From an uncultured Actinomycetes bacterium (GTDB lineage Bacteria > Actinomycetota > Thermoleophilia > Gaiellales > JAICJC01): a DNA stretch of 64,000 nucleotides. Positions within the stretch are counted from its first letter, which is position 1, and the number at the start of each line of letters is the position of its first letter. Positions 2,731-63,928 of this stretch are shown here, one piece after another. Position numbers and translations under genes: made by a program. Location of the stretch: positions 25,543-89,542 of the forward strand of contig CAVRSB010000020.1 of the NCBI GenBank assembly GCA_963723785.1, in the 5' to 3' direction. A model generated the notes under the pieces. It was not told the origin of the DNA. It searched no databases and saw nothing but the letters and a program-made list of their open reading frames with translations.

Positions 2731-3775
2731 GTGGCCGGATTGATCGATCGCTATCGCGACCGGCTTCCGGTCTCGGACAGCACCCCGGTGGTCTCGCTGG
2801 GAGAGGGCAACACGCCGCTGCTGCCGGCGCCCACGGATCTCGGCGTTGCTGGGAGTTGAGGTCTACCTCAAGTACGAGGGTGCGAATCCCACCGGGTCGT
2901 TCAAGGATCGCGGGATGACCATGGCCGTCTCAAAGGCGCTCGAGGAGGGTGCCACAGCTGCCGTGTGTGCCTCCACGGGCAACACCTCGGCGTCGGCTGC
3001 GGCCTACTGCGGTCGGGCCGGGATCCGCCTGGTGGTGGTGCTTCCCGAGGGCGCAATCGCCCGGGGAAAGCTCGCCCAGGCACAGATCTGCGGTGCCCGG
3101 GTGGTCGCCATCCAGGGCAGCTTCGACGACGCGCTGCATCTGGTGCGAGACCTGGTGGAGCGACGACCGCTGGCCCTGCTCAACTCGATCAACCCCTACC
3201 GCTTGGAGGGTCAGAAGACGGCGGCCTTCGAGGTGGTCGAGCAGCTCGGCGGAGTGCCCGACTGGGTGGCGCTGCCGGTCGGAAACGGCGGCAACATCTC
3301 CGCCTACTGGAAGGGATTTGGCGAGAGCGGCCAGGCGCCGCGGATGTTGGCCGGGCAGGCCGCCGGAGCGGCGCCGCTGCTGATCCGCGCGCCGGTGGCC
3401 TCGCCCCAGACGGTCGCAACCGCGATCAGGATCGGCAACCCGGCCCGGCTTGATCAGGCGCTGGCGGCGGTGGACGAGTCAAACGGCGGGATCCGCGCAA
3501 TCGACGACGCCGACATCCTGCGGGCCTACCGGATGCTGGCCCAGGACGAGGGAGTGTTCTGCGAACCGGCGTCGGCGACGTCGGTGGCGGCGTTGATCCA
3601 CGCGGTCAGCGACGGTCTGGTGGCGGCCGGCTCGACCGTGGTGTGCGTGCTGACCGGCCACGGCCTGAAGGATCCCGACACGGCCGGCGCCGAGGGTGCT
3701 GAGATCGTTCGCTGCCCGCCGCGGATCGAGGAACTCGAGCAGGTGGCTTTCGACGTGGAGCCGGTGCTTGCCTGA
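2731..3775 (+). CDS. thrC: Threonine synthase (frame change near the 5' end as assembled)
   Basis: The PLP-lysine motif [17 protein letters not shown] and full-length similarity in ORF 2846..3775 support the call. The N-terminus [33 protein letters not shown] (GTG 2731) is in the previous frame. The break is an extra C in run 2830-2832. Confidence 0.9.
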
Positions 3776-4650
3776 GCGGCTGATCGTCACCGCGCCGGCG
3801 TCATCGGCCAACCTGGGGCCGGGGTTCGATTGCCTGGCGGTGGCGCTGGAGCTGCGCAACAGGGTCGAAATCCGCGTCGTCGGTGGTGACGGACGTGCGG
3901 GTCGTGGCCGAGGGGGAAGGGGCCACCGAGATGCCCCAGGGCGGCGCCGACAACCTGTTCGTGCGGGCGTTCTCGGCTGCGGGCGGCGATCCCAGGGGAC
4001 TCGAGTTTCACATGACCAACGCGGTGCCGTTCGCCCGCGGGCTCGGGTCTAGCGCTGCCACGATCGCCGCCGGGGTGCTGGCCGGACAGGCCTGGAGCGG
4101 TGACAGCGGCGACCCGTTCACGCTGGCCGTCGACATCGAGGGGCATCCCGACAACGTGGCAGCTGCGCTCTCCGGCGGGATCATGCTCTCATGGAAGACC
4201 GCCCGCGGCCCGCAGAGCCTCCGGTTAGGACCTGCGCCGGTCGAGTTCGTGGCGGTGATCCCGCCGTACCAGCTGTCAACCGAGCAGGCGCGGGCGGTGA
4301 TCCCGCCGCAGGTGCCATTGTTCGACGCCGTGTACACCGGCGCGCGGGCGGCGCTGCTGGTGGCGGCCATCGAGCAGCGGCGGCCGGAGCTGATCGTGGA
4401 CGCCCTGGATGATCGCCTGCACGAGCCGTACCGAGCGGCGCTGGTGCCGCTGCTGGCCACGGTACGCGCGCGGATCGCCAGTCTCCCCGCCCTCGGGGCG
4501 ACGCTCTCGGGCGCCGGCCCCACGGTGTTGGTGTGGGCCGAGCAGGGGTCGGGAGCGGTGGTGGCTGCTGGCCTCGAAGGCCTCGACGGCGCCGTGGTGA
4601 AGCCGCTCTCGGTCGCCGATTCGGGCGCGCGCATCGAAGCTCTCGTGTAA
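3768..4650 (+). CDS. thrB: Homoserine kinase (frame change as assembled)
   Basis: GHMP-kinase motifs are present: [23 protein letters not shown] and [16 protein letters not shown]. The N-terminal 38 codons are in the frame of ORF 3696..4052. The switch occurs around 3882-3886. The start TTG 3768 overlaps the thrC stop. Confidence 0.88.
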
Positions 4651-8758: not shown

Positions 8759-10231
8759 TCAGGCTTTGGCGTCGGCTGCGAGCTGGATCGCGGTGCGCAC
8801 CTCGTGCAGCCGGTCACGTTCCACCAGGAGGTAGAGGACGTCGTCCGGCTGGATAGTGCTGCTGCCGCGGGGGAGCAGCAGCTCGTGGTCGCGTTCGATC
8901 GCGACCACCACCGCAGCTGCCGGAAGGTTGAGCTCTGCCAGGGTGCTTTCCGGCGGGATGCCGAGATCGCCCGGGTGTACCTCGAGCAGATCGGCCCCCA
9001 ACGACTCCAATGTGGCGGTGTCGAGTTCGGCCAGTCGCGGGGCTGGACGCCGGTCGACCACATCCAGACGCCTGGCCGCCCATCGCACCGTGACTCCCTG
9101 GAGCACGACCGAGACCACCACGACGTAGAACACCACGTCGAAGATCCGCTCTCCGCCCGACAGGCCGGCCGCGATCGGGAAGGTGGCAAACACGATGGGG
9201 ACGCCGCCGCGCAGTCCCGCCCACGCCAGGAACGCCTGATCGCGCAGCCGCACACCGAAGGCCGCCGTGCATACCAGCACCGCCAGCGGCCGCGCCACCA
9301 GCACCAGTGCGAGGGCGACCGTGAGCGGCGCGAGTCCCTCGTGGGCCAGGTCGTGGGGGGTGACCAGCAGGCCCAGCAGCACGAACAGCCCCAGCTGTGC
9401 GAGCCAAGCGCCGCCTTGGAGAAAGCCTCTGATCACGGCCGAGTGGGGGATCCGGGCATCGCCGATCACGAGCCCTGCCAGGTAGGCGGCCAGCAGCCCT
9501 GAACCGCCCAGCACCGAGACGCCCACATACCCAGCCAGCGCCGCCGACAGCGTGACCACAGGTGCGATTCCGGCTGAGGGCAGCGGCAGTTTTCGCAGCA
9601 GCCAGACGGTTGCGTAGCCGATGGCGACGCCGCCGACGGCGCCGATGGAAACCTCGCGCACCAACAGGATCAGCGCGTCGCCGGCGTCGTAGCCGGGGAC
9701 AGTCTTCCAATCGACCAGTCCGATCACAAGCAGCGCCGCAAACGGGTCGTTGAGTCCGCTCTCGGCCTCCAGGATCGCCGCCAGCCGCCTGCGAATGTTG
9801 AGCCCGCGGATGGCCGAGAACACCGCGGCCGCGTCGGTGGAGGCGACGGTGGCGCCCACCAGCAGGCTGCTGACCCAGCCCACTCCGGCCACCATTCGCG
9901 TCACCACTCCGGTAACCCCGGCAGTGATCACCACGCCCGCGGTTGCCAGTAGCGTCGCCGGCGCCGCGGCCCGCCGCACATCCGGCAGATCCGCCATTAG
10001 ACCGCCCTCGAGCAGGATCACCGCCAGCGCCAGCAGCCCCGCGTCCCTGGCCAGCACCGAGTCGTCGAATCTGATCCCGCCCGGTCCGTCCTCTCCCAGG
10101 AGCACGCCCAAACCCAGAAAGAGCAGCAGTGTCGGAGCACCCAGCTTGTCAACGAAGCTGGCCGCCACCGAGCCGACCAGCAGCACGATCACAGCAAGTA
10201 TGAGGGGCTCGGGGACGTGCACGCGGTTCAC
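8759..10231 (-). CDS. Cation/proton antiporter, CPA1 NhaP2/CvrA type, with C-terminal RCK-C (TrkA-C) domain
   Basis: This is an intact 490-aa ORF. It has a polytopic Na+/H+-exchanger-like membrane domain followed by a soluble RCK-C-like segment (..LNLPAAAVVVAIERDHELLLPRGSSTIQPDDVLYLLV). Confidence 0.85.
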   Translation of the reverse strand: MNRVHVPEPLILAVIVLLVGSVAASFVDKLGAPTLLLFLGLGVLLGEDGPGGIRFDDSVLARDAGLLALAVILLEGGLMADLPDVRRAAAPATLLATAGVVITAGVTGVVTRMVAGVGWVSSLLVGATVASTDAAAVFSAIRGLNIRRRLAAILEAESGLNDPFAALLVIGLVDWKTVPGYDAGDALILLVREVSIGAVGGVAIGYATVWLLRKLPLPSAGIAPVVTLSAALAGYVGVSVLGGSGLLAAYLAGLVIGDARIPHSAVIRGFLQGGAWLAQLGLFVLLGLLVTPHDLAHEGLAPLTVALALVLVARPLAVLVCTAAFGVRLRDQAFLAWAGLRGGVPIVFATFPIAAGLSGGERIFDVVFYVVVVSVVLQGVTVRWAARRLDVVDRRPAPRLAELDTATLESLGADLLEVHPGDLGIPPESTLAELNLPAAAVVVAIERDHELLLPRGSSTIQPDDVLYLLVERDRLHEVRTAIQLAADAKA

Positions 10232-10308
10232 CTCCTGCCGGGGAGTATGACGGGAGGGTTTTGCGGACAGCGGGCCGGGGAACTACGAGTCAGAGAAAGG
10301 ACGGTCTC

Positions 10309-10452
10309 GTGATACCACTTTTGCTTCTCATCATTCTGATTCTGGTGTTCGGCGTGATTGGTGCGCTCAAGCTTGCCTTCTGGGTGTTCCTGATCGCGTT
10401 GGTGGCGGCGGTAGCCGCCGCGTTCGTCGGTCGTACGCTGATCAGTCGGTGA
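10309..10452 (+). CDS. Small hydrophobic membrane protein (47 aa), hypothetical
   Basis: GTG 10309 lies 7 nt after AAAGGA. The product VIPLLLLIILILVFGVIGALKLAFWVFLIALVAAVAAAFVGRTLISR predicts two TM helices. No family is recognised. Confidence 0.4.
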   Translation: MIPLLLLIILILVFGVIGALKLAFWVFLIALVAAVAAAFVGRTLISR

Positions 10453-10454
10453 GC

Positions 10455-50677: not shown

Positions 50678-52372
50678 ATGATCACCCGCGCATCGCGGTT
50701 CCTCATGCCCACGTTGAAGGACGACCCGGCCGACGCCGAGGCCGTCAGCCACCGCCTGCTGGTGCGAGCCGGGTATGTCCGACAGGTGGGGTCGGGGCTC
50801 TACACCTTCCTGCCGCTCGGCTGGAAGGTGATGCAGCGGATCGCAGCGATCCTGCGCGAGGAAATGGATACGCTGGCGAATGGAAGTGTCGATGCCGGTG
50901 CTGAACCCGGCCGAACTGTGGCGCGAGACCCAGCGGTACGACGTCGACAACCTGTTCCGGCTGGAGGACTCGTCCGGCAAGCAGTACGTGCTGGCGATGA
51001 CCCACGAGGAGTGCTTCACCTTCCACGCTGCCCGCGAGATCCGCTCCTATCGGGAGCTGCCGCAGGTGTGGTACCAGATCCAGACCAAGGAGCGGGACGA
51101 GCCGCGGCCGAAGAGCGGGATCCTGCGCACCCGCGAGTTCATGATGAAGGATTCGTACAGCTTCGACCGAGACGACGACGGGCTGGATGCGTCGTATGAC
51201 CGGCACATCGAGGTGTATCGACGGATCTTCGAACGGTGCGGCCTGGCGACCTGGATGGTGGAGTCGGATACCGGCATGATGGGCGGCAAGTCGGCCCACG
51301 AGTTCATGGCGCCCAGCCCGTCGGGCGAGGATCGCCTGGTGCTGTGCTCGAACTGCGACTACGCCGCCAATCTCGAGGTCGCGCGCTCGATCCCGCGGCC
51401 GCCCGTGTTTCCTGACGCGTTGGATGCGCCCCAGCAGGTGGAGACGCCCGACGTGACCACCATCGAAGGGCTGGCAGAGTTTCTGGGGGTGGACGAGGCG
51501 GCCACCGCCAAGGCGATGCCGGTGGTGGCCGAAGGGCAGGTCGTGCTGGGGCTGGTGCGCGGTGACGACCGGCTGCACCAGCTGAAGATGCAGAAGGCGC
51601 TCAAGTCCGACTTCCGACCCGCCACTGCAGAAGAGATCCGTTCCACCTTCGGTGCCGAGCCGGGATCGATCGGGCCGGTGGGCGTCGACGTGCGGGTGAT
51701 CGCCGACGAGTCGCTTGCGCGACGGTCAGTTCGTTTCCGGCGCGAACGTGACCGGGCACCATCTGCTGGGCGTCCAGGCCGGACGGGATTTTCAGGCCGA
51801 GTTTCACGATCTGCGCGAGGTATCCGATGCCGAGACGTGCCCAAGCTGCGGCACCGGTACGTTGCGGGTGGAGCGGGCCATCGAGGTGGGCAACATCTTC
51901 AAGCTGGGTACCCGGTTCTCAGAAGCTCCTGGGGGCCACCTATCTGGACGAGTCCGGTTCCGAGCATCCGATCGTGATGGGCAGCTACGGCATCGGGCTG
52001 GCCCGGATCATGGCCTCGGTGGTGGAGCAGTCCCACGACGAGAAGGGCATCATCTGGCCGGCCGCGCTGGCACCGTTCGATGTGCACATGGTCGTGATCG
52101 GTGAGCCCGGTGCGCCGCAGCTGGAAGCTGCCGACACGATCGCCGCCGGGCTGGACGCCCGCGGCCTGCGGGTGTTGCTGGACGACCGCGATATGGGCCC
52201 CGGGGCGCGCTTTGCCGACGCCGAGCTGATCGGGATCCCGGTTCGGGTGACGGTGGGCAAGCGCACCGCCAGCGACGGCACCGCCGACGTGCAGGTGCGG
52301 CGGGGCCGCGAGCAGACGTCGCTGGCGGTGGCCGACGTGCCCGATGCGGTTGTGCAGGCGCTCGCCGAGTGA
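50678..52372 (+). CDS. proS: Proline--tRNA ligase (3 frame changes as assembled)
   Basis: The N-terminus is MITRASRFLMPTLKDDPADAEAVSHRLLVRAGYVRQV. Class II motifs (..FRLEDSSGKQYVLAMTHEE.., TREFMMKDSYSF), the INS editing region and the anticodon-binding C-terminus are present. The frames step 2>0>1>2. Confidence 0.92.
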
Positions 52373-52378
52373 TGCGAA

Positions 52379-52950
52379 CTAGTTTCCGCCGGTGCCGGCT
52401 GTGCGGGCCGGGGGCGTCACGACCACGCGCACTGAACCGGGGGATGCGGTATTATCGTTCTTGGCAGCCTGCCATCGAGCCTGGGCGTTGCGTAGCCGAG
52501 CGACGTACGCGGCGGCACCCTTGGCCGGAAGCCGTACGACGACGGTTGGCGTTCGTGGCGGTTCCGGTAGTGTCTCCTGCTGAGGGTGCCGGCAGCGGAG
52601 GAGTGGAGCAGCTTGCGGGCGTCGCCGGCGGAGATGGTGTAGACGCGCTCCGCGATCGAGGGCCCGACACTCTTGGAGCCAAGGTCGGCCTCTGCAGCCG
52701 CGCGCGTCGCCAGTCCGGTGGACTGTGACGAGCCTCCCAGGTTTGACGCGCCGATCGCGGCGCCGCCCAGGGCACAGGCAACCGCTGCAGCCGCGAGCAC
52801 CGGGCGCCACAGTCGCCGCTGGCGAGCGCGCCGGCGGCGCGGCTCGGCCGCGACCTGAGCCATCACCTCGCTGCGGAGATCCGCCGGGGCCTGCGCCTGA
52901 CCTTCGGCCCGAAGCCGGCGGGCAATGTCGGTATTCGGGTCGTCGCTCAC
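52379..52950 (-). CDS. Anti-sigma factor, single-pass membrane protein (frame change as assembled)
   Basis: GTG 52950 overlaps the sigma stop (GTGA). A short cytoplasmic part is followed by a TM helix (LWRPVLAAAAVACALGGAAIGA) and an extracytoplasmic tail that ends in another frame at 52379. The assignment is by position and topology only. Confidence 0.55.
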
Positions 52951-53470
52951 GTGGCGCGCTCCGGGTCGAGCTGCTGCGCCAGGGTGGCGCGGGCGCGATG
53001 CAGACGTGATTTGACGGTGCCCGGCGGCAGGTCGAGCAACTCGGCGGTCTCCTCCATCGACATGCCCACAATGTCGCACGCGGTGATGACGGTGCGAAAG
53101 TCGAGATCGAGGCCGGCCAGAGCATCCATCAGGTCGATGGTGGCGGGGGTATCGACGCTGTCGACACCGCCGGCACCTCGTCGACCGGCTGGGGAGTGCG
53201 CTTGCGCCGCTCGATCACGTCGTAGGCCTTGCGCACGACGATCCGGTAGATCCACGTCGAGAAGCGGGCATCACCGCGGAAGCGGTCGAGCGCCCGCCAG
53301 GCCGAGATCAGGCCTTCCTGCACGCAATCGCGCGCGTCCGCCTCGGAGGAGGTGATGCGCAGCGCGAGCGTGTACAGGCGGTCCTGGTAGCGCACCACCA
53401 GCTGCTCGAAGGCCGCGGCGTCGCCGCGGGCGGCCTTTCCGGCCAGCTTCTCGTCAGACTCCTCGCGCAC
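52947..53470 (-). CDS. ECF (sigma-70 group IV) RNA polymerase sigma factor (frame change as assembled)
   Basis: Region 2 is AAAFEQLVVRYQDRLYTLALRITSSEADARDCVQEGLISAWRALDRFRGDARFSTWIYRIV. Region 4 is ..FRTVITACDIVGMSMEETAELLDLPPGTVKSRLHRAR. The start is GTG 53470. The ORF extension across tRNA-Pro was rejected. Confidence 0.85.
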
Positions 53471-53586
53471 AGCCGGATGGTATGCGCGGGTACGGTCGCG
53501 AAGTGGGATTGAGATGGCCGCCGACTGGTTCACTGGCACTTTGACCGTCTGGGAGGGCGTGGGGTTCCCGATATACTCGGCGGTCT

Positions 53587-53660
53587 CGGGGCGTGGCGCA
53601 GCCTGGTAGCGCACCCGGCTGGGGGCCGGGCGGTCGCAGGTTCAAATCCTGCCGCCCCGA
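53587..53660 (+). tRNA. tRNA-Pro (anticodon GGG)
   Basis: The sequence folds as a cloverleaf. Acceptor CGGGGCG/CGCCCCG; D arm GCGC..GCGC; anticodon stem CCCGG/CCGGG with loop CTGGGGG; T arm GCAGG-TTCAAAT-CCTGC; discriminator A. No CCA is encoded. Confidence 0.9.
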
Positions 53661-53682
53661 CTAGAGGAGTTTGGCTCAACCA
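53616..53682 (+). repeat. attL-like direct repeat (3' part of tRNA-Pro + 22 nt)
   Basis: CGGCTGGGGGCCGGGCGGTCGCAGGTTCAAATCCTGCCGCCCCGACTAGAGGAGTTTGGCTCAACCA is 67/67 identical to 60069-60135. Confidence 0.9.
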
Positions 53683-53735
53683 AGCGGGTACGTTGCTATC
53701 GGCGGTTTCTGCGATTCGTGTTCTACGCTAAGCGG

Positions 53736-54015: not shown

Positions 54016-54258
54016 CTAGCGCTGTTGAGGATCGAGATCCGATACCGGCGCGGGCGTCGAAAAGCGCACGTGGTGGGCGCCGCTGAACTCCTCGAAGAGT
54101 TTCTCGACCTCGGCGGTCCGCTTCTCGGTGATCATGAGCCGCAGTTCGTGTTTGTGCCAGGTGCAGAGGTCGGCGAGGCGGGGTATGTGGTCAGAAGAGG
54201 CGACGTAGCCTGCTTGGGTTACGCCGGGTCGGTCGCACCTGGGCCAGTTGCACGTCAC
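54016..54258 (-). CDS. Hypothetical small Cys/His-containing protein (80 aa)
   Basis: This is an intact ORF beginning MTCNWPRCDRP..LCTWHKHE.. (C-x4-C ... C-x2-H), possibly a zinc ribbon. It is the last gene of the minus-strand cluster in the island. No family is recognised. Confidence 0.4.
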   Translation of the reverse strand: MTCNWPRCDRPGVTQAGYVASSDHIPRLADLCTWHKHELRLMITEKRTAEVEKLFEEFSGAHHVRFSTPAPVSDLDPQQR

Positions 54259-54327
54259 AGCCGCACCCGGAGGCTCTGATCGCCGGACCGGAGGTTCGGG
54301 TGCTTGGCCGAATGTGTCACTTGGCTG

Positions 54328-55298
54328 CTACTGAGTGAGGGAGACGGAGTTGGCGTAGTTGGTGATGATATCCGCCCGGGAGGCGCGCTGGAGGGATTGT
54401 TGGAGTCGTATCCGGTGAACGTGCCGTCGATTACCTTGCCGCCGTTGCCCGAGCACGAGCCCGGCCCGATGCCGCCGGAGCAGCCGGAGATCGAGAAATA
54501 GACGAACGCCACAACTGTGGCCTGGGCGTTGGTGCCGTTGCCGAAAGGATCCTGCACGACCGGAACTACGACTGTGACCGGCCACGACATGGTGTCCCAA
54601 GGCGCTTGGCTGAGGTTCACACCCGGCTGTGGACCGTTGCCGGTCTTGGATTTTGTGATGCACGAGCCGATCTGGAGGGTGCCGGTCTGGATCGTGCCGT
54701 GCATGATGCCGTCGAGTTGAGCTTCGCCTGAGCCGGCGGTGGCGTAGGTGCAGGCGGTGCCGGCCGTCACGCCCGCGGCGGGGAGCTGGATCGCTCCGGC
54801 GTTCGAGGACGATGTCCCGCAGCTGCCGCCGTAGATCGAGGCTGTGGCGCCGACCTGGACGCATTCGGCTGCGACCGCGAACGGCACCACGCCGTCGGTG
54901 ATCGAGTGGATGCTCTGAATGGTCGCCACAGCGGTGGCGCTGACGTGGACGGTGTTGATGCCGAAGATCTTGGCGAAGTACGTGGGCGCGTCGTAGTCCA
55001 CCGTGACCTTCACCGAATCTCCCGGTACCGTGTTGGTGACCAGCGAGTAGTTTCCGGTTTCGCCGGGCTTTGAGTTCTTACCAAAATACGTGGCCGCAGC
55101 GTTCGACCACTGACCGGTGGGAATCTGACTGGCGCCGGCCAGGGCCGAAGCGTCTGCGACGGACTGGGCCTGGGCTTTGTCCTGATACCACGCGCCCGCG
55201 TCAATCGCCAGGGCGCACATGCCGAGCACGACGAACATGAAGAGGCAGATCATTGGGAGGGTTTGACCCGACTCTTTGTGACGTTTCGCGTGGCTCAC
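54328..55298 (-). CDS. TadG/TadE-like Flp pseudopilin family protein, paralogue 1 (1 frame change near the 3' end as assembled)
   Basis: GTG 55298 starts the gene. The N-terminus is ..KESGQTLPMICLFMFVVLGMCALAIDAGAWYQDKAQAQSVADASALAGA, which looks like a Tad N-terminal domain. The C-terminus, corrected by paralogy, ends ..ADIITNYANSVSLTQ at 54328. Paralogue 2 ends ..NNNTAYTTALTQ. Confidence 0.7.
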
Positions 55299-55304
55299 GA
55301 CCCG

Positions 55305-55333
55305 AGTATCCGAGAGGTATCGAATCGATGCAA
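55305..55333 (-). promoter_or_regulatory. Candidate sigma-70-type promoter TTGCAT-N17-GATACT placed for a leaderless transcript of TadG-like paralogue 1
   Basis: On the minus strand, the -35 TTGCAT lies at 55333-55328 and the -10 GATACT at 55310-55305. The GTG start at 55298 is 6 nt after the -10. This is sequence pattern only. Confidence 0.35.
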
Positions 55334-55540
55334 TACCACAAAATGTAAAGTTAATTGGGGTGAGCACCCCCAGGGACGTACGCACAATGACAAAACTACA
55401 GCACAGCAACGCGAACCTTACGGAAAGCGGGCTGTGCTGCAGTTCACAGTGTAGGTGTTACCTGGGTTCTCTTACGTAAAGCTATTTGACGCTAGTTCCA
55501 CCTCGCAACACTCGTCATGACAGGAGTACGCGGGCTGCTG

Positions 55541-56104
55541 CTACTTAGGGCCGCCGCCGTTGCCGCCCTTGTTGGAGTTCGCGGGTGGATCAGGTTGGGT
55601 GGGGTTTCCGTGTTGGTCTCCGGCCTTGCCGTGTTGGTCTCCGGATTTGCCGTGCTGGCCGGCCTTGCTCTTTCCACCGCTGGCGGCTGTGGAGATGGTC
55701 GCGCCTTTGTCGACTCCTTTGGCGGTGGTGGTGGTTGCCAGTGTTGAGATCTGGCTGCCATGGCTGTCGGAGCCAGAGGTCGCGGCTTTGGTGGCCTGGT
55801 GATCGGACTTGCCATTCGTGGAGGCGATGGCAGAGACCGCCTTGCCTTTGTCGCGCCCGGTCTCGTCCGTTGTCCGGGCCAGGTTTGAGACTGTCCCGCC
55901 GTGGTTGGCGGGGTGGTTGGGCTTGGTAGTGGAGTGGTCGCTGTGTCCCGGGTTGATTCCCAGGCGTTGCAGCACGGCTGAGGCATTGTCCGACGCTGCC
56001 GCCGGCAGCCCCGAGGCATACGCCACTCCACTGGTCGCGACAAGTGTTGTCGCCGCAATCACGGCGAAGGGGAGTCGTCTGGTGGGAGAAAGGTTTACGA
56101 TCAT
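55541..56104 (-). CDS. Secreted repeat protein rich in His/Gly/Lys/Thr (187 aa), function unknown
   Basis: AGAAGGGG lies 8 nt upstream of ATG 56104. The signal peptide ends VATSGVAYA. Internal repeats are HGGTVSNLARTT..GRDKGKAVSAIAS and HGSQISTLATTT..GVDKGATISTAAS. The C-terminal heptads KAGQHGK/SGDQHGK/AGDQHGN are encoded by three 21-bp tandem repeats (55608-55670). Confidence 0.6.
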   Translation of the reverse strand: MIVNLSPTRRLPFAVIAATTLVATSGVAYASGLPAAASDNASAVLQRLGINPGHSDHSTTKPNHPANHGGTVSNLARTTDETGRDKGKAVSAIASTNGKSDHQATKAATSGSDSHGSQISTLATTTTAKGVDKGATISTAASGGKSKAGQHGKSGDQHGKAGDQHGNPTQPDPPANSNKGGNGGGPK

Positions 56105-56125
56105 GGTAGTGACCCCTTCTGTGGT

Positions 56126-56290
56126 TTACAGAACGCCGATTACACTTGTGAGTTCGCCGCTGATAGCGGTAGAGAGCAGTCCCAGTGTCACAACTACGGC
56201 GATCGTGATGACCGCTAGCACAACGGCGTATTCCGCCATCGTTTGCCCGCTCTCGCCGGAGCGGTGGGTGATGTTGAGCATGTCCGTCAT
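56126..56290 (-). CDS. Flp/Fap-family type IVb prepilin
   Basis: AAGGGAGG lies 5 nt upstream of ATG 56290. The product is MTDMLNITHRSGESGQTMAEYAVVLAVITIAVVVTLGLLS... It has the Flp processing motif G/xxxxEY followed by a hydrophobic helix. The product is 54 aa. Confidence 0.8.
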   Translation of the reverse strand: MTDMLNITHRSGESGQTMAEYAVVLAVITIAVVVTLGLLSTAISGELTSVIGVL

Positions 56291-56344
56291 GGTTGCCTCC
56301 CTTGGTGATGGTCGACACTGGGTCATGGTTCCGGCTACGGGTGT

Positions 56345-56512
56345 TTAGTTGTCGCCGATCGCGTTTGCGAGCGGATCGAGCATTTCGGGGTGAAGGGTGA
56401 CGAGAGTGATCAGTAGGATGATCAAAACGACTGCGATGATCGCGGCCCAGACGAGCACCATGTCTCGTTTTATCTGGTCTCGTTGAGGCGCTGCTTTTCG
56501 TGGAGGTGTCAT
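56345..56512 (-). CDS. Small single-pass membrane protein (55 aa), hypothetical
   Basis: ATG 56512 overlaps the stop of the upstream TadG-like gene (ATGA). The TM helix is MVLVWAAIIAVVLIILLITLVTL. Confidence 0.45.
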   Translation of the reverse strand: MTPPRKAAPQRDQIKRDMVLVWAAIIAVVLIILLITLVTLHPEMLDPLANAIGDN

Positions 56513-57523
56513 TGTGTGAGAGCTGTTGTGTAGGCGGTGTTGTTGTTGGGGTCGTATGTGCCGCTGGTGCCGGTGGAATCGGCGCTGTCGAGCGCTACGA
56601 ACACACCGTTGATTTGTTTGCCGTCGTTGTTTTTGCAGTAGCTGGGATGGTCTGGGTCGCCGCAGCTGGTGATCACGAAGTAGGCGAATCCGACGACGGT
56701 CATGGGGCTGCTGGTGCCGTTTGGCCAGACGCTCTGCCCGGAGGGATTGGTGAGCACGGGGATGAGCACGAGCTGGGGGCTGTTGGAGTCCTTCACCGTC
56801 GCCGGTGTGCGTGGTGAAGTCGACGATCTGGTCGGCGGTCTGCCAGTTGGTGATGCGCGTGTTGAGGCCCTGGGCGGTCGGCCCGCTGTTGTCCCCCGGC
56901 TTGGTTTGGAGGGTTTCCCCAAGCGTGATCGGGCATACGGGCTGGTCGCCGGTGATCTCGTCCTGGTAGACGTTTGCGCCGCTGGGGACGGGGCAGTTGG
57001 CGCCGGCGACGTAGGGGAGGCTGAGTGCGCCGTTGTTGGCGTTGGCGGTGGTCTTGGTGTAGATCGAGTAGGGCTGGCCGGGGACGTAGGTGCCTTGCAG
57101 CACGCCCCAGGGCATGGCGTTCACGCCGTTGATGGTGGTGAACGACTCGACCGTGGCCTGGGCGGTGGCGGTCTCGGTGACCGAGTCGAGACCGAAGATG
57201 GTGGTGAAGAACGTGTCGACATTTCGGGTCGCCGTTACGGTCACCGAGTCGTCCGTGACTTGGTCGGTCGTGTTGCTGACCGTGAGTGAGTCTGACGGCA
57301 GCCCGTTTTCTGCGTACTGCTCGTTTGCCGCGTCGCGAGCCTGGGAGGTGCCGGAGGGGATCTTTGATGCTCCCGCAAGTGCCGCCGCGTCGGCGGCGTT
57401 TTGGAGTTCGCGGCGGTTCACCAGCCAGTTGCCGCCGTCGACCACCAGGCCGCTGACACCGAGCAGCGCCGTCATCAACACGACCAGCAGCACCAGCGTC
57501 TGTCCGCTCTCGCTGGTGGTCAT
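56509..57523 (-). CDS. TadG/TadE-like Flp pseudopilin family protein, paralogue 2 (1 frame change ~56805 as assembled)
   Basis: ATG 57523 starts the gene. The N-terminus is MTTSESGQTLVLLVVLMTALLGVSGLVVDGGNWLVNRRELQNAADAAALAGA. The C-terminal half (56509..56922 frame) aligns with paralogue 1 (..VVGFAYFVITSCG..GKQINGVF..). Confidence 0.72.
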
Positions 57524-57731
57524 GCCCGTTCCGCCCGATCCGCACGCGATTGGATCGCGTCGGTAACCCCCTCCAACAGCTCCATGGTGGACAAGAACCA
57601 CCACGCGGCCAAATCCTGCGGTTCACGCCGAGAATCCCCCTTCTGGGGGACTCGACCGAGTGTGGCAACCATAAGCTTGCCTTAGGCCGGTGCCCTGTCG
57701 ATAGATCCTTATCGCAGGAAACTCCCGAGAT

Positions 57732-59138
57732 GTGTGTCTTGGGATCTGTGGACTTCCAGTGGCAGTCGATTCTCCCAGCAACACCAGCGCAGCCTCACGT
57801 CTCACCGCGCTCTATCAGGAGCATGCTGGCAGCGTGTTTGGCTTCGCCATGTATCTCACCGGACGGCGGGAGGACGCCGAGGACGTCGTCCAGCACACGT
57901 TCATCCAGGCCTTCCGGATGCTCGAGGCTGGAGACGAGCTGATGTATCCCCGCTCGTGGCTGATGCGTGCGACCAAGAACCAGGCTCTCAACCTGATCCG
58001 CGATCGGCATGAGTTCCCGACCGAGAACATCGTGCTGGAAGCACGGCCCACGACCGATGCCGACCGTCGCGAGGCCGAGGAACTCGCCTTTGTGCGCGCG
58101 ACTCTGTGGACGCTGCCCGAAAACCAGCACCACGCGTTCGTGCTGAGACACTGGAGCGGGCTTTCCCAAAACGAGATCGCCGAGGTACTCGCCACCTCGC
58201 CGGCAGCCGTTGAGTCACTCCTGACCCGAGCCCGCAGCGCACTGGTCGAGGAACGCACCGTGACCGGCGGTGAGTGCCGAAGTGTGCGCACCCGATTGGT
58301 TGAAGCCGCAGAACTCACCGCGGCGCAGGTCGCGCACGTCGGCTCCTGCCGAAAATGCCGCAAGGCGCAGAACCGGTTGGCACGTGCCGCCGGGTTCGCC
58401 GCCACGTTCGTGCTCCTGCCCCGGCCACACGTCGCTCACGCACTCGCATCGGCCATCCCCGGATTCACACCACCTGCCGCAGGCATCGCCGGACTCGGCG
58501 CGGCCGGGGCTGGAAGCACCGCTGCACCCGCAGGGATCGTCTCCACCTCAAGCTCCGTGGCGGCCGCCGCGAAGGCCACCATCACTGCCAAGGTCGTCGT
58601 CGCCGCCATCACCGCGACCGCGGCCATCGCGGTCGTTCACCCGGTGAGAGAGCCGATCACCACCGCAATCCGAGACGTGGTGCCGGGGCTCTCCGCCGCT
58701 CACAATCCCTCGGTATCCGATTCCCCGTCAACACCCGGTAGCTCTGCCACAACCGGCAACGGCGATGGCCCACCCGCCGGGCACGGAACACCGAACGCCC
58801 ACGCCAACGCCAACGCTCACGGAAGCACGACCGCACATGGCCAAAGCGCCGCGCACGGCAAGACCGCTGCTCACGGAAAGAGTGCGGCCCACGGCAACTC
58901 AGGCGGCAATAGCGCGGCCCACAGCCAGGGCGCCACACACAAGCAGGCCCACCCCAGCAGGGCGCGGGCAGCACCGGCGTCGCCAAGGGCAACCCCCACA
59001 CAACCACAACCGGAACCACAAAGACGACTGGAAACGGCAAAGCGAACAGCAAAACCGGCCGGTGCCGCCGAGAACACAACCACCGGCAAAGGCAAGGCTC
59101 CAGCCACGCCACCCGGCAAAGCCAAGGGCAAGCCATAA
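57732..59138 (+). CDS. ECF sigma factor continuous (as assembled) with a ZAS-type anti-sigma domain, TM region and His/Ala/Gly/Lys-repeat tail
   Basis: Region 2 is LYQEHAGSVFGFAMYLTGRREDAEDVVQHTFIQAFR. Region 4 is HAFVLRHWSGLSQNEIAEVLATSPAAVESLLTRAR. The HxxxCxxC motif (HVGSCRKC) follows, then hydrophobic segments and AHGKTAAHGKSAAHGNS repeats. The junction contains GTGA (58260-58263). Removing one C of the run 58258-58259 would restore two separate genes. Confidence 0.7.
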   Translation: MCLGICGLPVAVDSPSNTSAASRLTALYQEHAGSVFGFAMYLTGRREDAEDVVQHTFIQAFRMLEAGDELMYPRSWLMRATKNQALNLIRDRHEFPTENIVLEARPTTDADRREAEELAFVRATLWTLPENQHHAFVLRHWSGLSQNEIAEVLATSPAAVESLLTRARSALVEERTVTGGECRSVRTRLVEAAELTAAQVAHVGSCRKCRKAQNRLARAAGFAATFVLLPRPHVAHALASAIPGFTPPAAGIAGLGAAGAGSTAAPAGIVSTSSSVAAAAKATITAKVVVAAITATAAIAVVHPVREPITTAIRDVVPGLSAAHNPSVSDSPSTPGSSATTGNGDGPPAGHGTPNAHANANAHGSTTAHGQSAAHGKTAAHGKSAAHGNSGGNSAAHSQGATHKQAHPSRARAAPASPRATPTQPQPEPQRRLETAKRTAKPAGAAENTTTGKGKAPATPPGKAKGKP

Positions 59139-59298: not shown

Positions 59299-59680
59299 CT
59301 AGGGATGCGTTGGGTGTGGAGGGTGGGTCTTGGTCGCGGTTTCGGTCACGGTCATAACGCTGACCACCGTGGAGACTTCCGTGGTGGTCGCAGTGAGCGT
59401 CGGAGGCACTGTGACCGTCTTGGTGGATGTCAATGTCTTCCGCTGCACTGGCACGGCGATCACCTGAGTTGAATGGGCGGTCGTCGGCGGTACCGGATCG
59501 TTGTCACCTTGGCAGCTACCCGAACGGTCTTCAAACCAGGTGTCTCCCGAGGGACCGCGCCTTGACCTGACGGGTGATGGTGATCGTGTACACCGCGGCA
59601 CTACGCTTGTCCGTGCCGCCACCTACCGTGCTCCCCACCGCAAAGCCGGCACCACATACAGCGATGAGGCCAATGCCCAT
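59299..59680 (-). CDS. Hypothetical membrane-anchored Thr/Val-rich protein (1 frame change as assembled)
   Basis: ATG 59680 gives MGIGLIAVCGAGFAVGSTVGG (TM). After a break at ~59560 the sequence continues ..TVTVPPTLTATTTEVSTVVSVMTVTETATKTHPPHPTHP. No family is recognised. Confidence 0.4.
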
Positions 59681-59946
59681 TGGAATGAAATACCGCTGAT
59701 CCAGGTTTAGATCACGCAACAAGGTCAAACCCCGGAAGGTTGGAAACCACGCACGCGCCGTTAGAAGATACCCGTTCGCTTCGGCCGCGACACACCACTC
59801 CCGGGATGACCCCGGGGTCGTCCGGTAGCGGCCGCGTGCCCCTTCCGCACTGTGCCGAGGCCTCACGCACCAATCGAGGCGTTGGGGGCGGCCGAGGCAT
59901 AGCACCGATCTGGTTTTCTTCACCGCTCACGAGGCCTCACCCACCG

Positions 59947-59966: not shown

Positions 59967-60068
59967 AACACCTCGATCCACTGCAAACGACGTGAACCGC
60001 CGACCACTCTCTTTCACGTGTTTAGGCGAAATCCGCTTGGTTGAACCAACCTGAGGCTGCCTTTGGTG

Positions 60069-60135
60069 CGGCTGGGGGCCGGGCGGTCGCAGGTTCAAAT
60101 CCTGCCGCCCCGACTAGAGGAGTTTGGCTCAACCA
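60069..60135 (+). repeat. attR-like direct repeat (partial tRNA-Pro copy)
   Basis: This copy is identical over 67 nt. It lacks the 5' 29 nt of the tRNA, so it is not a functional tRNA. Confidence 0.9.
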
Positions 60136-60899
60136 GGTGGGTCGTGACTCGCGAGGCGACGCCAGTGGTACGGCGTGGTGGTGGAGACTTTGAGGAAGCC
60201 GGATCGCTCGAGGATGGGGCGTGAATATTCGGTGGAGTCGCTGTGGAGGAGTGCCTTGCCCGCCGCCAGGGCCGACCGGGCTCGGGCAGCAGTGAGTGCT
60301 CTGTAGATACCTTGGCGGCGCCAAGCTTCTAACGTGGCTCCACCCCAGATTCCGGCGAAGTCGGTGCCCGCGACGGGTTCGAGCCGTCCCGCGCTCACAA
60401 TCTGTCCGTCGGCCTCCGCCACCCACAATTCCATCCCGTCACCGAGTGCCAAACGACGCAGAAGCGCCGGAGCCGACTGATCTGAAATCGTGCCATCGAA
60501 GACCATGTCCTGCATAGCGGCCATCGCCCGAACGTCAGCTTCCTCCCATACCTGGCGCAGCGTGACACCGGCGGGCGGGCGGGCGTCGACGTCGAGCAAC
60601 TGCGCTCGTCCGATCATGATCGCCTCTGGCTCTTGACGCTCGAATCCATTCTGGAGCAGTGCCTCGTGAAGTCCAGGGGCGCGATCGTGACCGCGGGTCT
60701 TCCACTCAACGTGCGTGATCTCGGGATCCTCGCGGTAATGATCGAGGGCCTGTGCCACGAGCTGCGCGACGGGCTCGGCCTCGGTACCGTCGAGGTGTGG
60801 AGAGGTCACGAACCCTCGACCCCCAGCGAACCTCACCAAGCGAAGCGGGCCGAGGTGGGTCACAGCGACGGCACTCGGCGTTTCTGCGTCGGTGCGCAA
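60129..60899 (-). CDS. GNAT-family N-acetyltransferase
   Basis: This is an intact 256-aa ORF. The acetyl-CoA binding motif is ..WRRQGIYRALTAARARSALAAG... The stop and last two codons lie inside the right island repeat. Confidence 0.75.
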   Translation of the reverse strand: MRTDAETPSAVAVTHLGPLRLVRFAGGRGFVTSPHLDGTEAEPVAQLVAQALDHYREDPEITHVEWKTRGHDRAPGLHEALLQNGFERQEPEAIMIGRAQLLDVDARPPAGVTLRQVWEEADVRAMAAMQDMVFDGTISDQSAPALLRRLALGDGMELWVAEADGQIVSAGRLEPVAGTDFAGIWGGATLEAWRRQGIYRALTAARARSALAAGKALLHSDSTEYSRPILERSGFLKVSTTTPYHWRRLASHDPPG

Positions 60900-60983: not shown

Positions 60984-62225
60984 TCAGGCGCTTTCGGACG
61001 GTGACTCGGGTCTCGTGGCTGCCGTTTGGGCCACCGTTGGGGGTGGGCGGAGCCAGAGGGTTACGTGGCGTGGCTGCAGCGTGACATTGACAACGTCAAT
61101 TACTCCGGCTGCGACCGCGTCGAGTTCTATTTCGCCTCGGAGCTTTCCGGTGAACCCGCCGAGTGTTTTGACTGCGTCGTACCGATCACGATAGAAGCGG
61201 TGATCGACGCTGCGCTGGATCCGAGTCCGAAGCGGCTGGAACAAGCCGGCGACGACGAGCGTCGAGAACGTAACGGCGAGTGCTCCAGACTGGCCGGTAA
61301 GCGACCGAAACGCCCATCCCAGGAGGGAGATTCCGCCCAGGTAGAGCAGCCCAAGGGCGGCGATCAGCACTGCGTACACCAGCGTCTTTCGGACAATCAC
61401 ATCGATCTCGTACAGCCGGTACTTGAGGATCCCGATTCCAAGCGCGATCGGGAGCGCCATCACGCCGATCAGGCCGAGGTCCCCAAGCACCGAGTTGGTC
61501 CCGGCGAACGCGAGCATCGCGCAGAGAACACTGATGACGCCACCACCGACGAGCCATTTCAGCTGCTGCCGACGCTCGCCGGTTGACCGGCGAAATGCGG
61601 AGATCTGGGTGCACAGCCAGGCAAGGAGAACCACAAACAACACCGCAAAGAAGATGTTCTGCGCGATCGCCCACAAGGCTTCGACGCCGGTCGGGTGGTT
61701 GATCTGCCGGATGTCTCCGCTGTTGTCCGCGATCTGGATATGGCCGACCGCGATCGCGCCAGCAGCGATCGCGAACGCTCCGAACACCCGACAAGCCGCC
61801 GCTGAGAGATAGATCCGAAGCGCCCAGCGCCATCGCGGCGTTGGCAGGTGGCCGTCGGGAAAAAGGAGCACCGCAAGCCCGAACAGGACGATCGCAGTTG
61901 ACCAACTCGGTTGGAGCAAGACCGCGAGCCACCCGACTGGCAGCGAGTCATGATCGCGGTACACGAGGGTGCTGTAGAGGGATGCGTCGCCGCTGACCAC
62001 AAACGACAGGGCGATACCAAGGAGGATCCAGCCGGTGGGATGGCGTGGTCTTCGCGTAGCCACCACCGCGCCGACGACGCCAAACGCCAGGATCAGAGGC
62101 GCAGTGGCCGCATTCGCGGCGAGGCTTCTGTGAGCCGACTCGAGCAGCGGTATGGACGCTGCCATCAGCCCCAGTAGCAGTGCCATCAGCACCGTTGGGG
62201 CCTTCGGTGAGGCGACCGAAATCAC
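60984..62225 (-). CDS. Polytopic membrane protein resembling the N-terminal sensor module of actinobacterial histidine kinases, no kinase domain (paralogue 1)
   Basis: This is an intact 413-aa ORF. Motifs shared with 62690..63928 are FPDGHLP..RWRW, QLKWL, (K/R)YRLYEIDVI(V/I)R(K/R)TLVY, LTGQSGALAVT.STL and FQPLR.RIQ..VDHRFYR..YD. No H-box or ATPase motifs are present. Confidence 0.65.
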   Translation of the reverse strand: MISVASPKAPTVLMALLLGLMAASIPLLESAHRSLAANAATAPLILAFGVVGAVVATRRPRHPTGWILLGIALSFVVSGDASLYSTLVYRDHDSLPVGWLAVLLQPSWSTAIVLFGLAVLLFPDGHLPTPRWRWALRIYLSAAACRVFGAFAIAAGAIAVGHIQIADNSGDIRQINHPTGVEALWAIAQNIFFAVLFVVLLAWLCTQISAFRRSTGERRQQLKWLVGGGVISVLCAMLAFAGTNSVLGDLGLIGVMALPIALGIGILKYRLYEIDVIVRKTLVYAVLIAALGLLYLGGISLLGWAFRSLTGQSGALAVTFSTLVVAGLFQPLRTRIQRSVDHRFYRDRYDAVKTLGGFTGKLRGEIELDAVAAGVIDVVNVTLQPRHVTLWLRPPPTVAQTAATRPESPSESA

Positions 62226-62633: not shown

Positions 62634-62689
62634 TGCGGATTCGCTCGAGTCGTAACGATCCCGGAACGTGAATTTGCGACACTGACTGT

Positions 62690-63928
62690 GTGAATACTCG
62701 TTTGAAGATGGCGGCATGGGCGCTGTTCGGGTTGGTCGTCCTGCTGAATTTGGTGGCTGTGTACTACAGCTTCGTGACGCGGGAGTACCACGACTCAACC
62801 AGCTGGGGCAACAGCGGCCTGGTGTCGACGCTCGGGCTCGGATTGACCACGTTCATGTTCCCGCTGGTGGGTGTGGTGATCGCTGTTCGCCGGCCGCAGA
62901 ACGCCATCGGGTGGTTGATGCTCGCGATTGGATTCGTGTGGGGTCTGGAGGGAGTGGTGTCCGGATACGCGACCGATGTGATGTCGTTCCGCCACGGTTC
63001 GCGCGAGGTCGCAGGCTACGCGGCGGCGGTCGACGGCATGCTGTGGCTGCCCGGCGTCGGCCTGATCGGGACGTTCCTGATCCTGCTCTTTCCCGACGGG
63101 CATCTGCCGAGCCGGCGGTGGCGGTGGGTCGGATGGGTGGCCGGATTCACCATCGGGCTCGGGTCGCTGGTGATCCTGTTCAGCCCTGGGCCGATGACCG
63201 ACAGCTCGTATCCGACAGAGGTAAACCCGCTCGGCATCGGTGCCATCGGCACGCTGCTGGACTTCGGTCACCTCGTCATCATCCTGCTGCCGGTGGCGAT
63301 CCTGGGCGCAGCTGCAAGCCTGGTGTCGCGCTACCGCGCCGCGCACGGCGCTGACAGGTTGCAGCTCAAGTGGCTGGCCGCCTCCGCGGCGCTTGTGGCG
63401 GTGCTCTACGGGGTCACCGAGGTGCTGTCGATCACGATTGCGTCGAACAATCGGGTTCCGGGGTGGCTTTTGGTGATGCAGGATCTGGCACTGCTCAGCT
63501 TCGCGCTGATCCCGATCTCGATCGGATTCGCGGTGTTCCGCTACCGGCTCTACGAGATTGACGTGATCATCCGCCGGACACTCGTCTACACGACTCTGAT
63601 CGGATCGCTCGCGATCGTCTATCTGGGCGGCATCTATGTCGTCGGCGACGTTCTGCAGACGCTCACTGGGCAATCCGGGGCGCTGGCGGTGACAGTCTCG
63701 ACGCTGGCGGTGGCCGCCGCGTTCCAGCCGCTGCGATCAAGGATCCAGAGCACAGTCGACCACCGCTTTTACCGCGCCAAATATGACACCGGCATGACGC
63801 TGGACGCGTTCAGCGGGCGGCTGCGCCAGCAGATCGACCTGGACGCGCTTCACGCAGAGGTGCTGACCGTCGTCAGAGACGCCCTCGAGCCCAGCCAGGC
63901 CACGCTCTGGTTCCGGTCGGAGCGGTAG
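62690..63928 (+). CDS. Polytopic membrane protein, kinase-less sensor-module paralogue 2
   Basis: This is an intact 412-aa ORF. It shares the motif set listed for 60984..62225 and is divergently oriented to it. Confidence 0.65.
   Translation: MNTRLKMAAWALFGLVVLLNLVAVYYSFVTREYHDSTSWGNSGLVSTLGLGLTTFMFPLVGVVIAVRRPQNAIGWLMLAIGFVWGLEGVVSGYATDVMSFRHGSREVAGYAAAVDGMLWLPGVGLIGTFLILLFPDGHLPSRRWRWVGWVAGFTIGLGSLVILFSPGPMTDSSYPTEVNPLGIGAIGTLLDFGHLVIILLPVAILGAAASLVSRYRAAHGADRLQLKWLAASAALVAVLYGVTEVLSITIASNNRVPGWLLVMQDLALLSFALIPISIGFAVFRYRLYEIDVIIRRTLVYTTLIGSLAIVYLGGIYVVGDVLQTLTGQSGALAVTVSTLAVAAAFQPLRSRIQSTVDHRFYRAKYDTGMTLDAFSGRLRQQIDLDALHAEVLTVVRDALEPSQATLWFRSER

Follow-up and report, generated by a model that had tools for sequence, protein, structure and literature searches.

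Genes for Flp pilins are found "almost always" inside tad loci (PMC4322843). Myxococcus xanthus has four kilLMN (TadE/F/G-like) "Tip" clusters for its Kil (Tad) pilus. Three lie away from the loci that encode the machinery, one of them with the Flp minor pilin KilO; a single machine and a single prepilin peptidase serve these sets in trans, and the paralogous sets act as interchangeable pilus tips (PMC12075869). In actinobacteria, where tadV is typically unlinked, the Micrococcus luteus tad-1/tad-2 competence pilus has its components, the unlinked tadV included, spread over separate loci and requires distal one-transmembrane genes of the PF13400 type (PMC4322843). Here we describe an orphan cassette of Tad-family pilin genes, an Flp prepilin and two TadG-like proteins with small companions, at positions 54016-57523 on the minus strand of a 64,000-nt stretch (the window) of contig CAVRSB010000020.1 from an uncultured Actinomycetes bacterium. 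The cassette lies beside a divergent sigma factor gene on an island enclosed by direct repeats at a tRNA-Pro gene.

The cassette resembles the Tip clusters in that those, too, are minor-pilin sets with a large TadG-like protein, in one case with a small Flp, standing apart from the machinery loci. It differs from them in having two TadG-type proteins and no recognisable TadE or TadF, in its monoderm actinobacterial host, and in its place on a tRNA-flanked island with its own extracytoplasmic function (ECF) sigma/anti-sigma fusion and a matching promoter-like box; it is also known here from sequence alone. With M. luteus it shares an actinobacterial Flp system and PF13400-type one-transmembrane proteins, but each M. 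luteus cluster retains tadA-tadB-tadC whereas the cassette has no linked machinery. A first-pass annotation of the window had called this arrangement unusual. It is not very unusual: the Tip clusters precede it (PMC12075869), and 13 of 13 relative loci also lack machinery within 10 kb. Orphan pilin sets are already known and will not surprise a specialist. What appears to be undescribed in the literature we searched is a sigma-linked, island-borne TadG pair with a promoter-like motif conserved across uncultured Actinomycetota. We favour, with modest confidence, the reading that the cassette is a sigma-controlled accessory Tad (type IVc) pilin or tip module served by a Tad machine encoded elsewhere, and analogy with the trans-acting TadE/F/G and Flp clusters of Myxococcus supports it (PMC12075869).

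Pilin-type proteins and the search for Tad machinery

The genes of the cassette are listed below in their order on the minus strand. A slash within a protein string marks the predicted cleavage site, and related loci are cited by L numbers.

56509-57523, minus: TadG-like 2 (TadG2), about 338 aa after frameshift correction, with the leader MTTSESG/QTLVL...
56345-56512, minus: TM55, a 55-aa single-pass membrane protein, ATGA-coupled, its ATG overlapping the TGA of TadG2 (CAATGA)
56126-56326 (likely start 56290), minus: Flp prepilin, MTDMLNITHRSGESG/QTMAEY..., with a 39-aa mature pilin predicted from the likely start
55541-56104, minus: Rep187, a 187-aa exported or anchored protein with an N-terminal hydrophobic segment and two HGxxVSxLAxTT...DKGxxISxxAS repeats
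54328-55298, minus: TadG-like 1 (TadG1), about 323 aa after frameshift correction, with the leader MSHAKRHKESG/QTLPM..., a long N-terminal helix and a beta-rich head
54016-54258, minus: Cys80, an 80-aa Cys/His protein (CxxxxC...CxHxH), conserved 3' of TadG1 in L002 and L003

Re-reading bore out the gene order, coordinates and motif strings first given for the cassette, the gap between Rep187 and TadG1 being 242 nt where 240 bp had been stated. The string ESGQT, which the three pilin-type proteins were said to share, does stand directly before the N-terminal hydrophobic helix in all three (57497-57511, 56240-56254 and 55260-55274, each on the minus strand). These are exactly the three copies present in the six-frame translation of the window, where 0.054 would be expected from residue frequencies.

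The Flp prepilin is 54-66 aa long, within the 50-80 aa expected of such proteins, and about 20 hydrophobic residues follow its junction. The junction reads ...ESG/QTMAEYAVVLAVITIAVVVTLGLL, that is, G/XXXXEY (G/QTMAEY), the processing site by which Flp prepilins are defined (PMC4322843). The protein is 52-62% identical to Flp open reading frames (ORFs) that adjoin cpaF in six Gaiellaceae loci (L016, L021, L022, L037, L038 and L050), one of which, that of L021, passes the Pfam Flp_Fap model (PF04964) at 33.0 bits inside a Pfam-confirmed operon. As all six read [DE]xGQTMAEYG, ESGQT is the class III leader junction of the lineage and is not private to the island. The assignment to Flp, proposed at first sight of the sequence, stands through this identity to the pilins of cpaF-bearing loci; it did not hold against PF04964 itself, whose cutoff the window protein misses, and NCBIfam gives no match. 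Flp is predicted to be trimmed after the Gly of ESG/QTMAEY by a TadV-type peptidase and to polymerise into a fibre.

The two large proteins were placed more directly, and their assignment to the TadE/TadG families was upheld. Both pass the Pfam model PF13400 (Tad, TadE/G-like; cutoff 22.3 bits), TadG1 at 46.6 bits (E-value 4.2e-12) and TadG2 at 51.2 bits (1.6e-13), and TadG1 also passes Tad_C (33.3 bits, 1e-7). Neither reaches the NCBIfam model TIGR03816 for Rv3654c-type TadE-like proteins (23.2 and 35.6 bits, cutoff 50.95). Orthologues of TadG1 are 75-95% identical to it; TadG2 aligns with the TadG-like family over its full length and is 50-53% identical to solitary TadG genes in L009, L010 and L013. 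An alignment of 52 sequences describes a single family, marked by G-Q-T-L at the N-terminus (conserved to at least 90%), a stretch reading ADAxALAGA and a C-terminus that is likewise conserved. For comparison with a canonical tad operon we took L021 as the reference, from a Gaiellaceae metagenome-assembled genome in which Pfam confirms Flp, Tad, RcpC, a TadZ-like ParA ATPase, T2SSE and two T2SSF genes. Compared by hhalign, the family profile matched the tadG of L021 over 261 columns (99.9% probability, E-value 4.7e-32). Because this match is full-length, the two TadG-like proteins of the window are true paralogues of machinery-linked tadG. The AlphaFold2 model of TadG1 (pLDDT 81) has a pilin-like build, with a 45-residue helix (13-57) and a beta-rich head. 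Both TadG-like proteins begin with a short basic leader, and TadG2 is taken to have the same helix and head.

Neither TadG-like gene is a single intact ORF in the window; the frame changes near 56796 in TadG2 and near 54375 in TadG1. We place the latter there because the orthologues P0001-P0004 end in ...NYANSVSLTQ, so that neither end of the 384-aa ORF that stops at 54255 is genuine. Indels in fact pervade the window. The essential prolyl-tRNA synthetase (ProRS) gene (50678-52372), whose best named relatives are labelled "Gaiellales bacterium" at 71-77% identity, is broken over 3-4 frames, an ECF sigma gene upstream of the tRNA (52947-53614) is split in two by a frameshift, and the dehydrogenase genes (E3 and E1) are in pieces. 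The pattern suggests a long-read assembly left uncorrected, in which ORF-level calls need frameshift-tolerant reading. The nearest contigs belong to ENA assemblies ERZ250395xx and bear flye-style names, contig_147491 of ERZ25039568 being 97% identical, and the source has the look of a soil metagenome read with long reads. Frameshifts in both TadG-like genes and in the last ORF of the island, and an island with no integrase left in it, would also fit an integrated element in decay, now a remnant without function and with pseudogenes for genes. We consider this highly improbable, since the frameshifts are assembly-wide and strike the ProRS gene as well, TadG1 orthologues of 307-324 aa are intact on other contigs, and the regulatory elements described below are conserved. 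Moreover, ratios of nonsynonymous to synonymous substitution rates (dN/dS) against the 75%-identical locus L003 were 0.13 for TadG1, 0.11 for Flp, 0.09 for the C-terminal part of TadG2 and 0.16 for the sigma gene, with 0.38 for Cys80; the values of 0.09-0.16 show that TadG1, TadG2, Flp and the sigma factor are under constraint. Judged from the window-wide indels, the intact orthologues and the low dN/dS, the TadG frameshifts are very probably assembly errors and not gene decay.

The canonical Gaiellaceae tad operon (flp-tadG-rcpC-tadZ-cpaF-tadB-tadC, in L021, L016, L022, L037 and L050) shares with the cassette the [DE]xGQTMAEY site and full-length tadG homology. Unlike that operon, the window holds only paralogues of its first two genes, flp once and tadG twice, and no RcpC, TadZ, CpaF or TadB/C. 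With these five L021 proteins as tblastn queries (E <= 1e-3 for CpaF), we obtained zero matches in the 64-kb window and zero matches within 10 kb around the 13 loci that carry full-length relatives (L001-L015); the same queries do match about 30 more distant loci. Neither a CpaF-type Walker A motif nor the peptidase motif GxGD[VAILMF]K was found in any of the six frames of the window. Nor are T2SSE, T2SSF, TadZ, RcpC/CpaB or the A24 peptidase family (PF01478) listed in the precomputed Pfam annotation of syntenic contigs, which covers 25-55.5 kb of the window. The absence of ATPase and platform genes, first noted for the island, extends to the whole window; for the peptidase, the negative covers the six-frame motif search of the window and the Pfam annotation of 25-55.5 kb. 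The cassette is a set of Tad-family substrates and not a Tad locus, the defining machinery genes having been searched for and not found.

Class III signal peptides can be promiscuous substrates. Given that the 64 kb at hand yield no Tad machine for the host genome, the subunits could be assembled by another type IV filament machine of the genome, for example a Com-like or type IVa-like one. We think this quite unlikely: G/XXXXEY Flp pilins and TadG homologues adjoin CpaF, TadB and TadC in the five Gaiellaceae loci that have the canonical operon, and the window showed no genes of another type IV filament.

The sigma factor and its promoter-like boxes

The regulatory features of the cassette are as follows.

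57732-59138, plus: ECF sigma gene (468 aa) fused to a Zn-finger-like segment (HxxxCxxC), a hydrophobic segment and a long low-complexity HG[KQ]-rich tail
57714-57741, plus: GCAGGA-N17-TCTTG box facing the sigma gene, exact match, at the same place in L002 and L003
57592-57619, minus: GCAGGA-N17-TCTTG box facing the TadG2 operon, exact match, promoter-like
57627-57656, unstranded: palindrome CGAGTCCCCC-AGAA-GGGGGATTCTCG (CCCCC-N4-GGGGG), z -3.4, about 16 nt upstream of the -35-like box
55389-55446, minus: terminator-like hairpin, then UAGUUUUGU, with a folding energy of -32 kcal/mol and z -3.9

The ECF52 group of sigma factors, found only in Actinobacteria and exemplified by SCO4117 of Streptomyces coelicolor, combines a sigma domain with a Zn-finger segment, one or more membrane segments and a long, low-complexity C-terminal extension (PMC5826349). 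The sigma ORF of the island has the same fused layout and resembles ECF52 in architecture. It carries Sigma70_r2 (7e-13) and Sigma70_r4_2 (3e-12) and scores 77 bits with TIGR02937; the HxxxCxxC motif, HVGSCRKC, and the hydrophobic stretch were read from the sequence. Pfam found neither zf-HC2 nor a carbohydrate-binding domain in the ORF. Unlike SCO4117, it has no detected carbohydrate-binding domain, and the likeness is one of layout. The candidate box also differs, GCAGGA-N17-TCTTG against the CSGYN-17-SRHA proposed for SCO4117 (PMC5826349).

This box emerged from a comparison of the regions 5' of TadG-like genes across many loci. Two exact copies occur in the 64 kb, where 0.02 would be expected, and both lie, pointing apart, in the 208-nt spacer between the sigma gene and TadG2. 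Exact copies also stand upstream of TadG-like genes in L002, L006, L007, L014 and L015 and upstream of the sigma gene in L002 and L003, and variants that differ by one base occur in L008, L010 and L012. Because the copy that faces the sigma gene spans 57714-57741, the sigma gene probably starts near 57759 rather than at 57732. The two boxes look like an autoregulated pair of ECF promoters, which we offer as a prediction. That the cassette comes with its own sigma factor, as had been supposed at first, is backed by an exact promoter-like motif common to the sigma and TadG2 sides.

Between these boxes lies the palindrome, which may serve as an operator, as a UP-like element or in an RNA hairpin; L003, L006, L010 and L014 have a CCCC-N3-5-GGGG element in a corresponding position. 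Further downstream, the terminator-like hairpin parts the TadG2-TM55-Flp-Rep187 unit from TadG1-Cys80, and its stem is kept in L002 and L003 despite a different sequence. Past the hairpin, upstream of TadG1, there is a conserved AACTTTACAT/GGATACTCG stretch. A match to GGAAC-N18-CGT after the Rep187 stop was rejected, as it is not conserved in L002 or L003.

The pairing of TadG genes with sigma factors recurs elsewhere. Genes of the same 468-aa sigma type adjoin TadG genes in L002, L003, L010 and L012, the L010 and L012 copies being 57-58% identical to that of the island. The more distant L006, L007, L014 and L015 are arranged as TadG, ECF sigma, a 250-aa protein and TadG, whereas L008 has TadG, Flp and TadG with no sigma gene nearby, and TadG stands alone in L004, L009 and L013. 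As Flp-less modules and solitary copies exist, the pairing of TadG with sigma does not strictly need the pilin. The 250-aa protein (9068-9820 in L006), whose N-terminus resembles a cytoplasmic anti-sigma segment, bears on Rep187: in L006, L014 and L015 its transmembrane and ectodomain part is 40-46% identical (tblastn) to Rep187. Because of this identity, what had been described as a secreted repeat protein is a homologue of an anti-sigma ectodomain. A relationship of Rep187 to the tail of the sigma gene was considered and dropped, the similarity being of low complexity only.

Taken together with the common box, these loci raise the prospect that the cassette is one case of a regulon, so far undescribed and common among uncultured Actinomycetota of soil, in which a TadG-type pair, with or without Flp, is under a dedicated ECF sigma/anti-sigma system acting through GCAGGA-N17-TCTTG. 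We put this forward tentatively and regard it as rather doubtful. If true, such a regulon would amount to a "tip/pilin swap" module for Tad pili that regulates itself and can be exchanged horizontally, and in it Rep187 might relay pilus or surface contact back to the sigma factor.

Cys80, TM55 and Rep187 belong to no Pfam or NCBIfam family; TM55 is conserved in L002 (78%) and L003. In L001, a TadG1-like gene (76% identical) is overlapped by a PilZ-domain gene, with two more PF13400 genes nearby (10001-11706, 12832-13470 and 14650-15610) and neither Flp nor machinery. The PilZ overlap hints at a link between cyclic di-GMP and the TadG family. Cys80, which like the PilZ protein follows TadG1, was compared with it as a possible relative, and the two have no similarity. 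In L003, about 1.1 kb absent from the window is inserted between the sigma gene and TadG2; it includes, at 3559-4431, a degenerate LspA-like protein (Peptidase_A8, 31.7 bits, without the first catalytic Asp motif) and a small membrane ORF. We rejected this degenerate protein as a candidate prepilin peptidase. In L009, a secreted protein with collagen-like GPQGDP repeats (11443-12045) is encoded downstream of the solitary TadG2-like gene.

Proposed assembly of the subunits

In an accessory module served in trans, a signal would release the sigma domain, which would then transcribe its own gene and the TadG2-TM55-Flp-Rep187 operon from the two GCAGGA-N17-TCTTG promoters. The prepilins would enter the membrane, and a TadV-type peptidase from another locus would cut Flp, and probably the TadG-like proteins, behind the conserved Gly. 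A CpaF/TadB/TadC machine, likewise encoded elsewhere, would assemble the trimmed subunits, with the TadG-like proteins, which lack Glu5, priming or capping the fibre and Flp forming or joining its shaft. Minor pilins without Glu5 are known in other type IV filaments.

The same genes could instead form an envelope module that works without any pilus machine. The TadG-like proteins would then be uncleaved bitopic proteins, with PF13400 a mere anchor, and would act with the ECF sigma/anti-sigma system and Rep187 as a surface-sensing or display unit, the Flp-like peptide being a small membrane protein. This possibility draws on the core conserved in the distant relatives L006, L007, L014 and L015, which consists of TadG, ECF sigma, the anti-sigma-like protein and a second TadG, with no Flp; on the lack of machinery within 10 kb of any of the 13 loci with full-length relatives; on the missing Glu5; and on the likeness of Rep187 to an anti-sigma ectodomain. 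We nevertheless find it unlikely. The TadG-like proteins are full-length homologues of the tadG that lies inside canonical tad operons, the invariant Gly-Gln-Thr before their helix corresponds to the Flp cleavage site in this lineage, both here and in L008 the operon includes a bona fide Flp-type gene, and the predicted fold of TadG1 is pilin-like.

Several observations weigh against the accessory module itself. Flp scores below the thresholds of PF04964 (21.8 against 32.2 bits) and of the Pfam family DUF4244 (19.7 against 27 bits), and Foldseek returned no solved structural relative for the TadG1 model. The TadG-like proteins hold Gly at -1 but Met or Leu, not Glu, at +5. For common processing by one TadV/CpaA-type peptidase, as the first-pass annotation had it, Flp offers a complete site, and in the other two, with their conserved Gly, cleavage is plausible; cleavage of TadG proteins in general is not established. 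Modules L006, L014 and L015 and the solitary copies L004, L009 and L013 have no Flp gene nearby. GCAGGA-N17-TCTTG was not found upstream of TadG1, which leaves TadG1 and Cys80 without a box. No integrase or recombinase, as ORF or Pfam match, was found between the repeats of the island. Finally, Tad machinery is not shown for the host genome, for which the data amount to 64 kb, and in a scan of species-representative genomes the closest relative among the matches listed was 45% identical.

TadG proteins are among the least understood parts of Tad pili, and the Myxococcus work suggests that they form exchangeable tips of the pilus. An accessory module of paired TadG proteins, Flp, a private ECF sigma factor and a common box on a tRNA-flanked island would carry the tip idea to abundant uncultured soil actinobacteria (Gaiellales-like), and would suggest that cells can acquire adhesion or contact specificity horizontally and turn it on in response to a signal at the envelope. 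The ECF52 group has only one characterised member, and the boxes also give an ECF52-like sigma factor a concrete candidate for its promoter and regulon. Practical limits are set by an uncultured organism, a noisy assembly and an unproven dependence on a Tad machine.

The island at tRNA-Pro and its surroundings

The island is about 6.45 kb long and is inserted at the 3' end of tRNA-Pro(GGG). Its borders and its last gene are as follows.

53587-53661, plus: tRNA-Pro (GGG), called by ARAGORN, target of the integration and left end of the island
53616-53689, plus: left 74-nt direct repeat, attL-like, made up of the last 46 nt of tRNA-Pro and a 28-nt tail, 97% identical to 60069-60142
59299-59923, minus: frameshifted ORF for a small membrane-anchored Thr/Val-rich protein, the last gene of the island, with homologous DNA in L002 (1-375)
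60069-60142, plus: right 74-nt direct repeat, attR-like, made up of a 3' pseudo-half of tRNA-Pro and the tail, not called as a tRNA by ARAGORN

The direct repeats enclose the cassette, the divergent sigma gene and this one small frameshifted ORF, and the G+C content within the island is 60-65%, as against about 68-70% over most of the window. The island occupies the same tRNA in L092 (97% identical) and L002 (90% identical). In the sister lineage L097-L099 (81% nucleotide identity, 12 kb of synteny) the site is empty, and a homologue of 61045-61475 follows about 115 nt after the tRNA; L100 is likewise without the island. The same tRNA-Pro follows a sigma/anti-sigma pair in L002, L092, L097, L099 and L100. 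TadG1 recurs on an 8,802-nt contig (P0005 and P0082) with 84% identity in ProRS, and as the island is absent from L097-L100, its presence is patchy. L003 has the same cassette and sigma gene, but there they adjoin a phospholipase D gene.

Horizontal acquisition, suspected from the start, fits the direct repeats at tRNA-Pro, the lower G+C content and the empty site of the sister lineage. Integrative elements of actinomycetes such as pSAM2 sit at tRNA-Pro. The island shares with tRNA-integrated islands of this kind an insertion at the 3' part of a tRNA, a direct repeat at the far end, a lower G+C content and a patchy presence. It differs from them in having no integrase, excisionase or transfer gene, in a repeat that runs 28 nt past the tRNA, and in extra DNA past the right repeat that the empty site lacks as well.

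That extra DNA holds a GNAT acetyltransferase gene (60129-60899), which lies outside the right repeat and is absent from the empty site of L097-L099. At 60033-60052, just upstream of the right repeat, 20 nt of the tail behind tRNA-Pro (53668-53687) recur in inverted orientation. The missing GNAT gene and the inverted copy together suggest a compound or tandem insertion. Beyond them, 60984-62225 (minus) and 62672-63925 (plus) encode two polytopic membrane proteins (413 and 418 aa), paralogues in inverted orientation, which belong to no Pfam family and have in common the tail YRLYEIDV[IV][IV]R[KR]TLVY...DHRFYR; a homologue of these proteins abuts tRNA-Pro in the island-free lineage.

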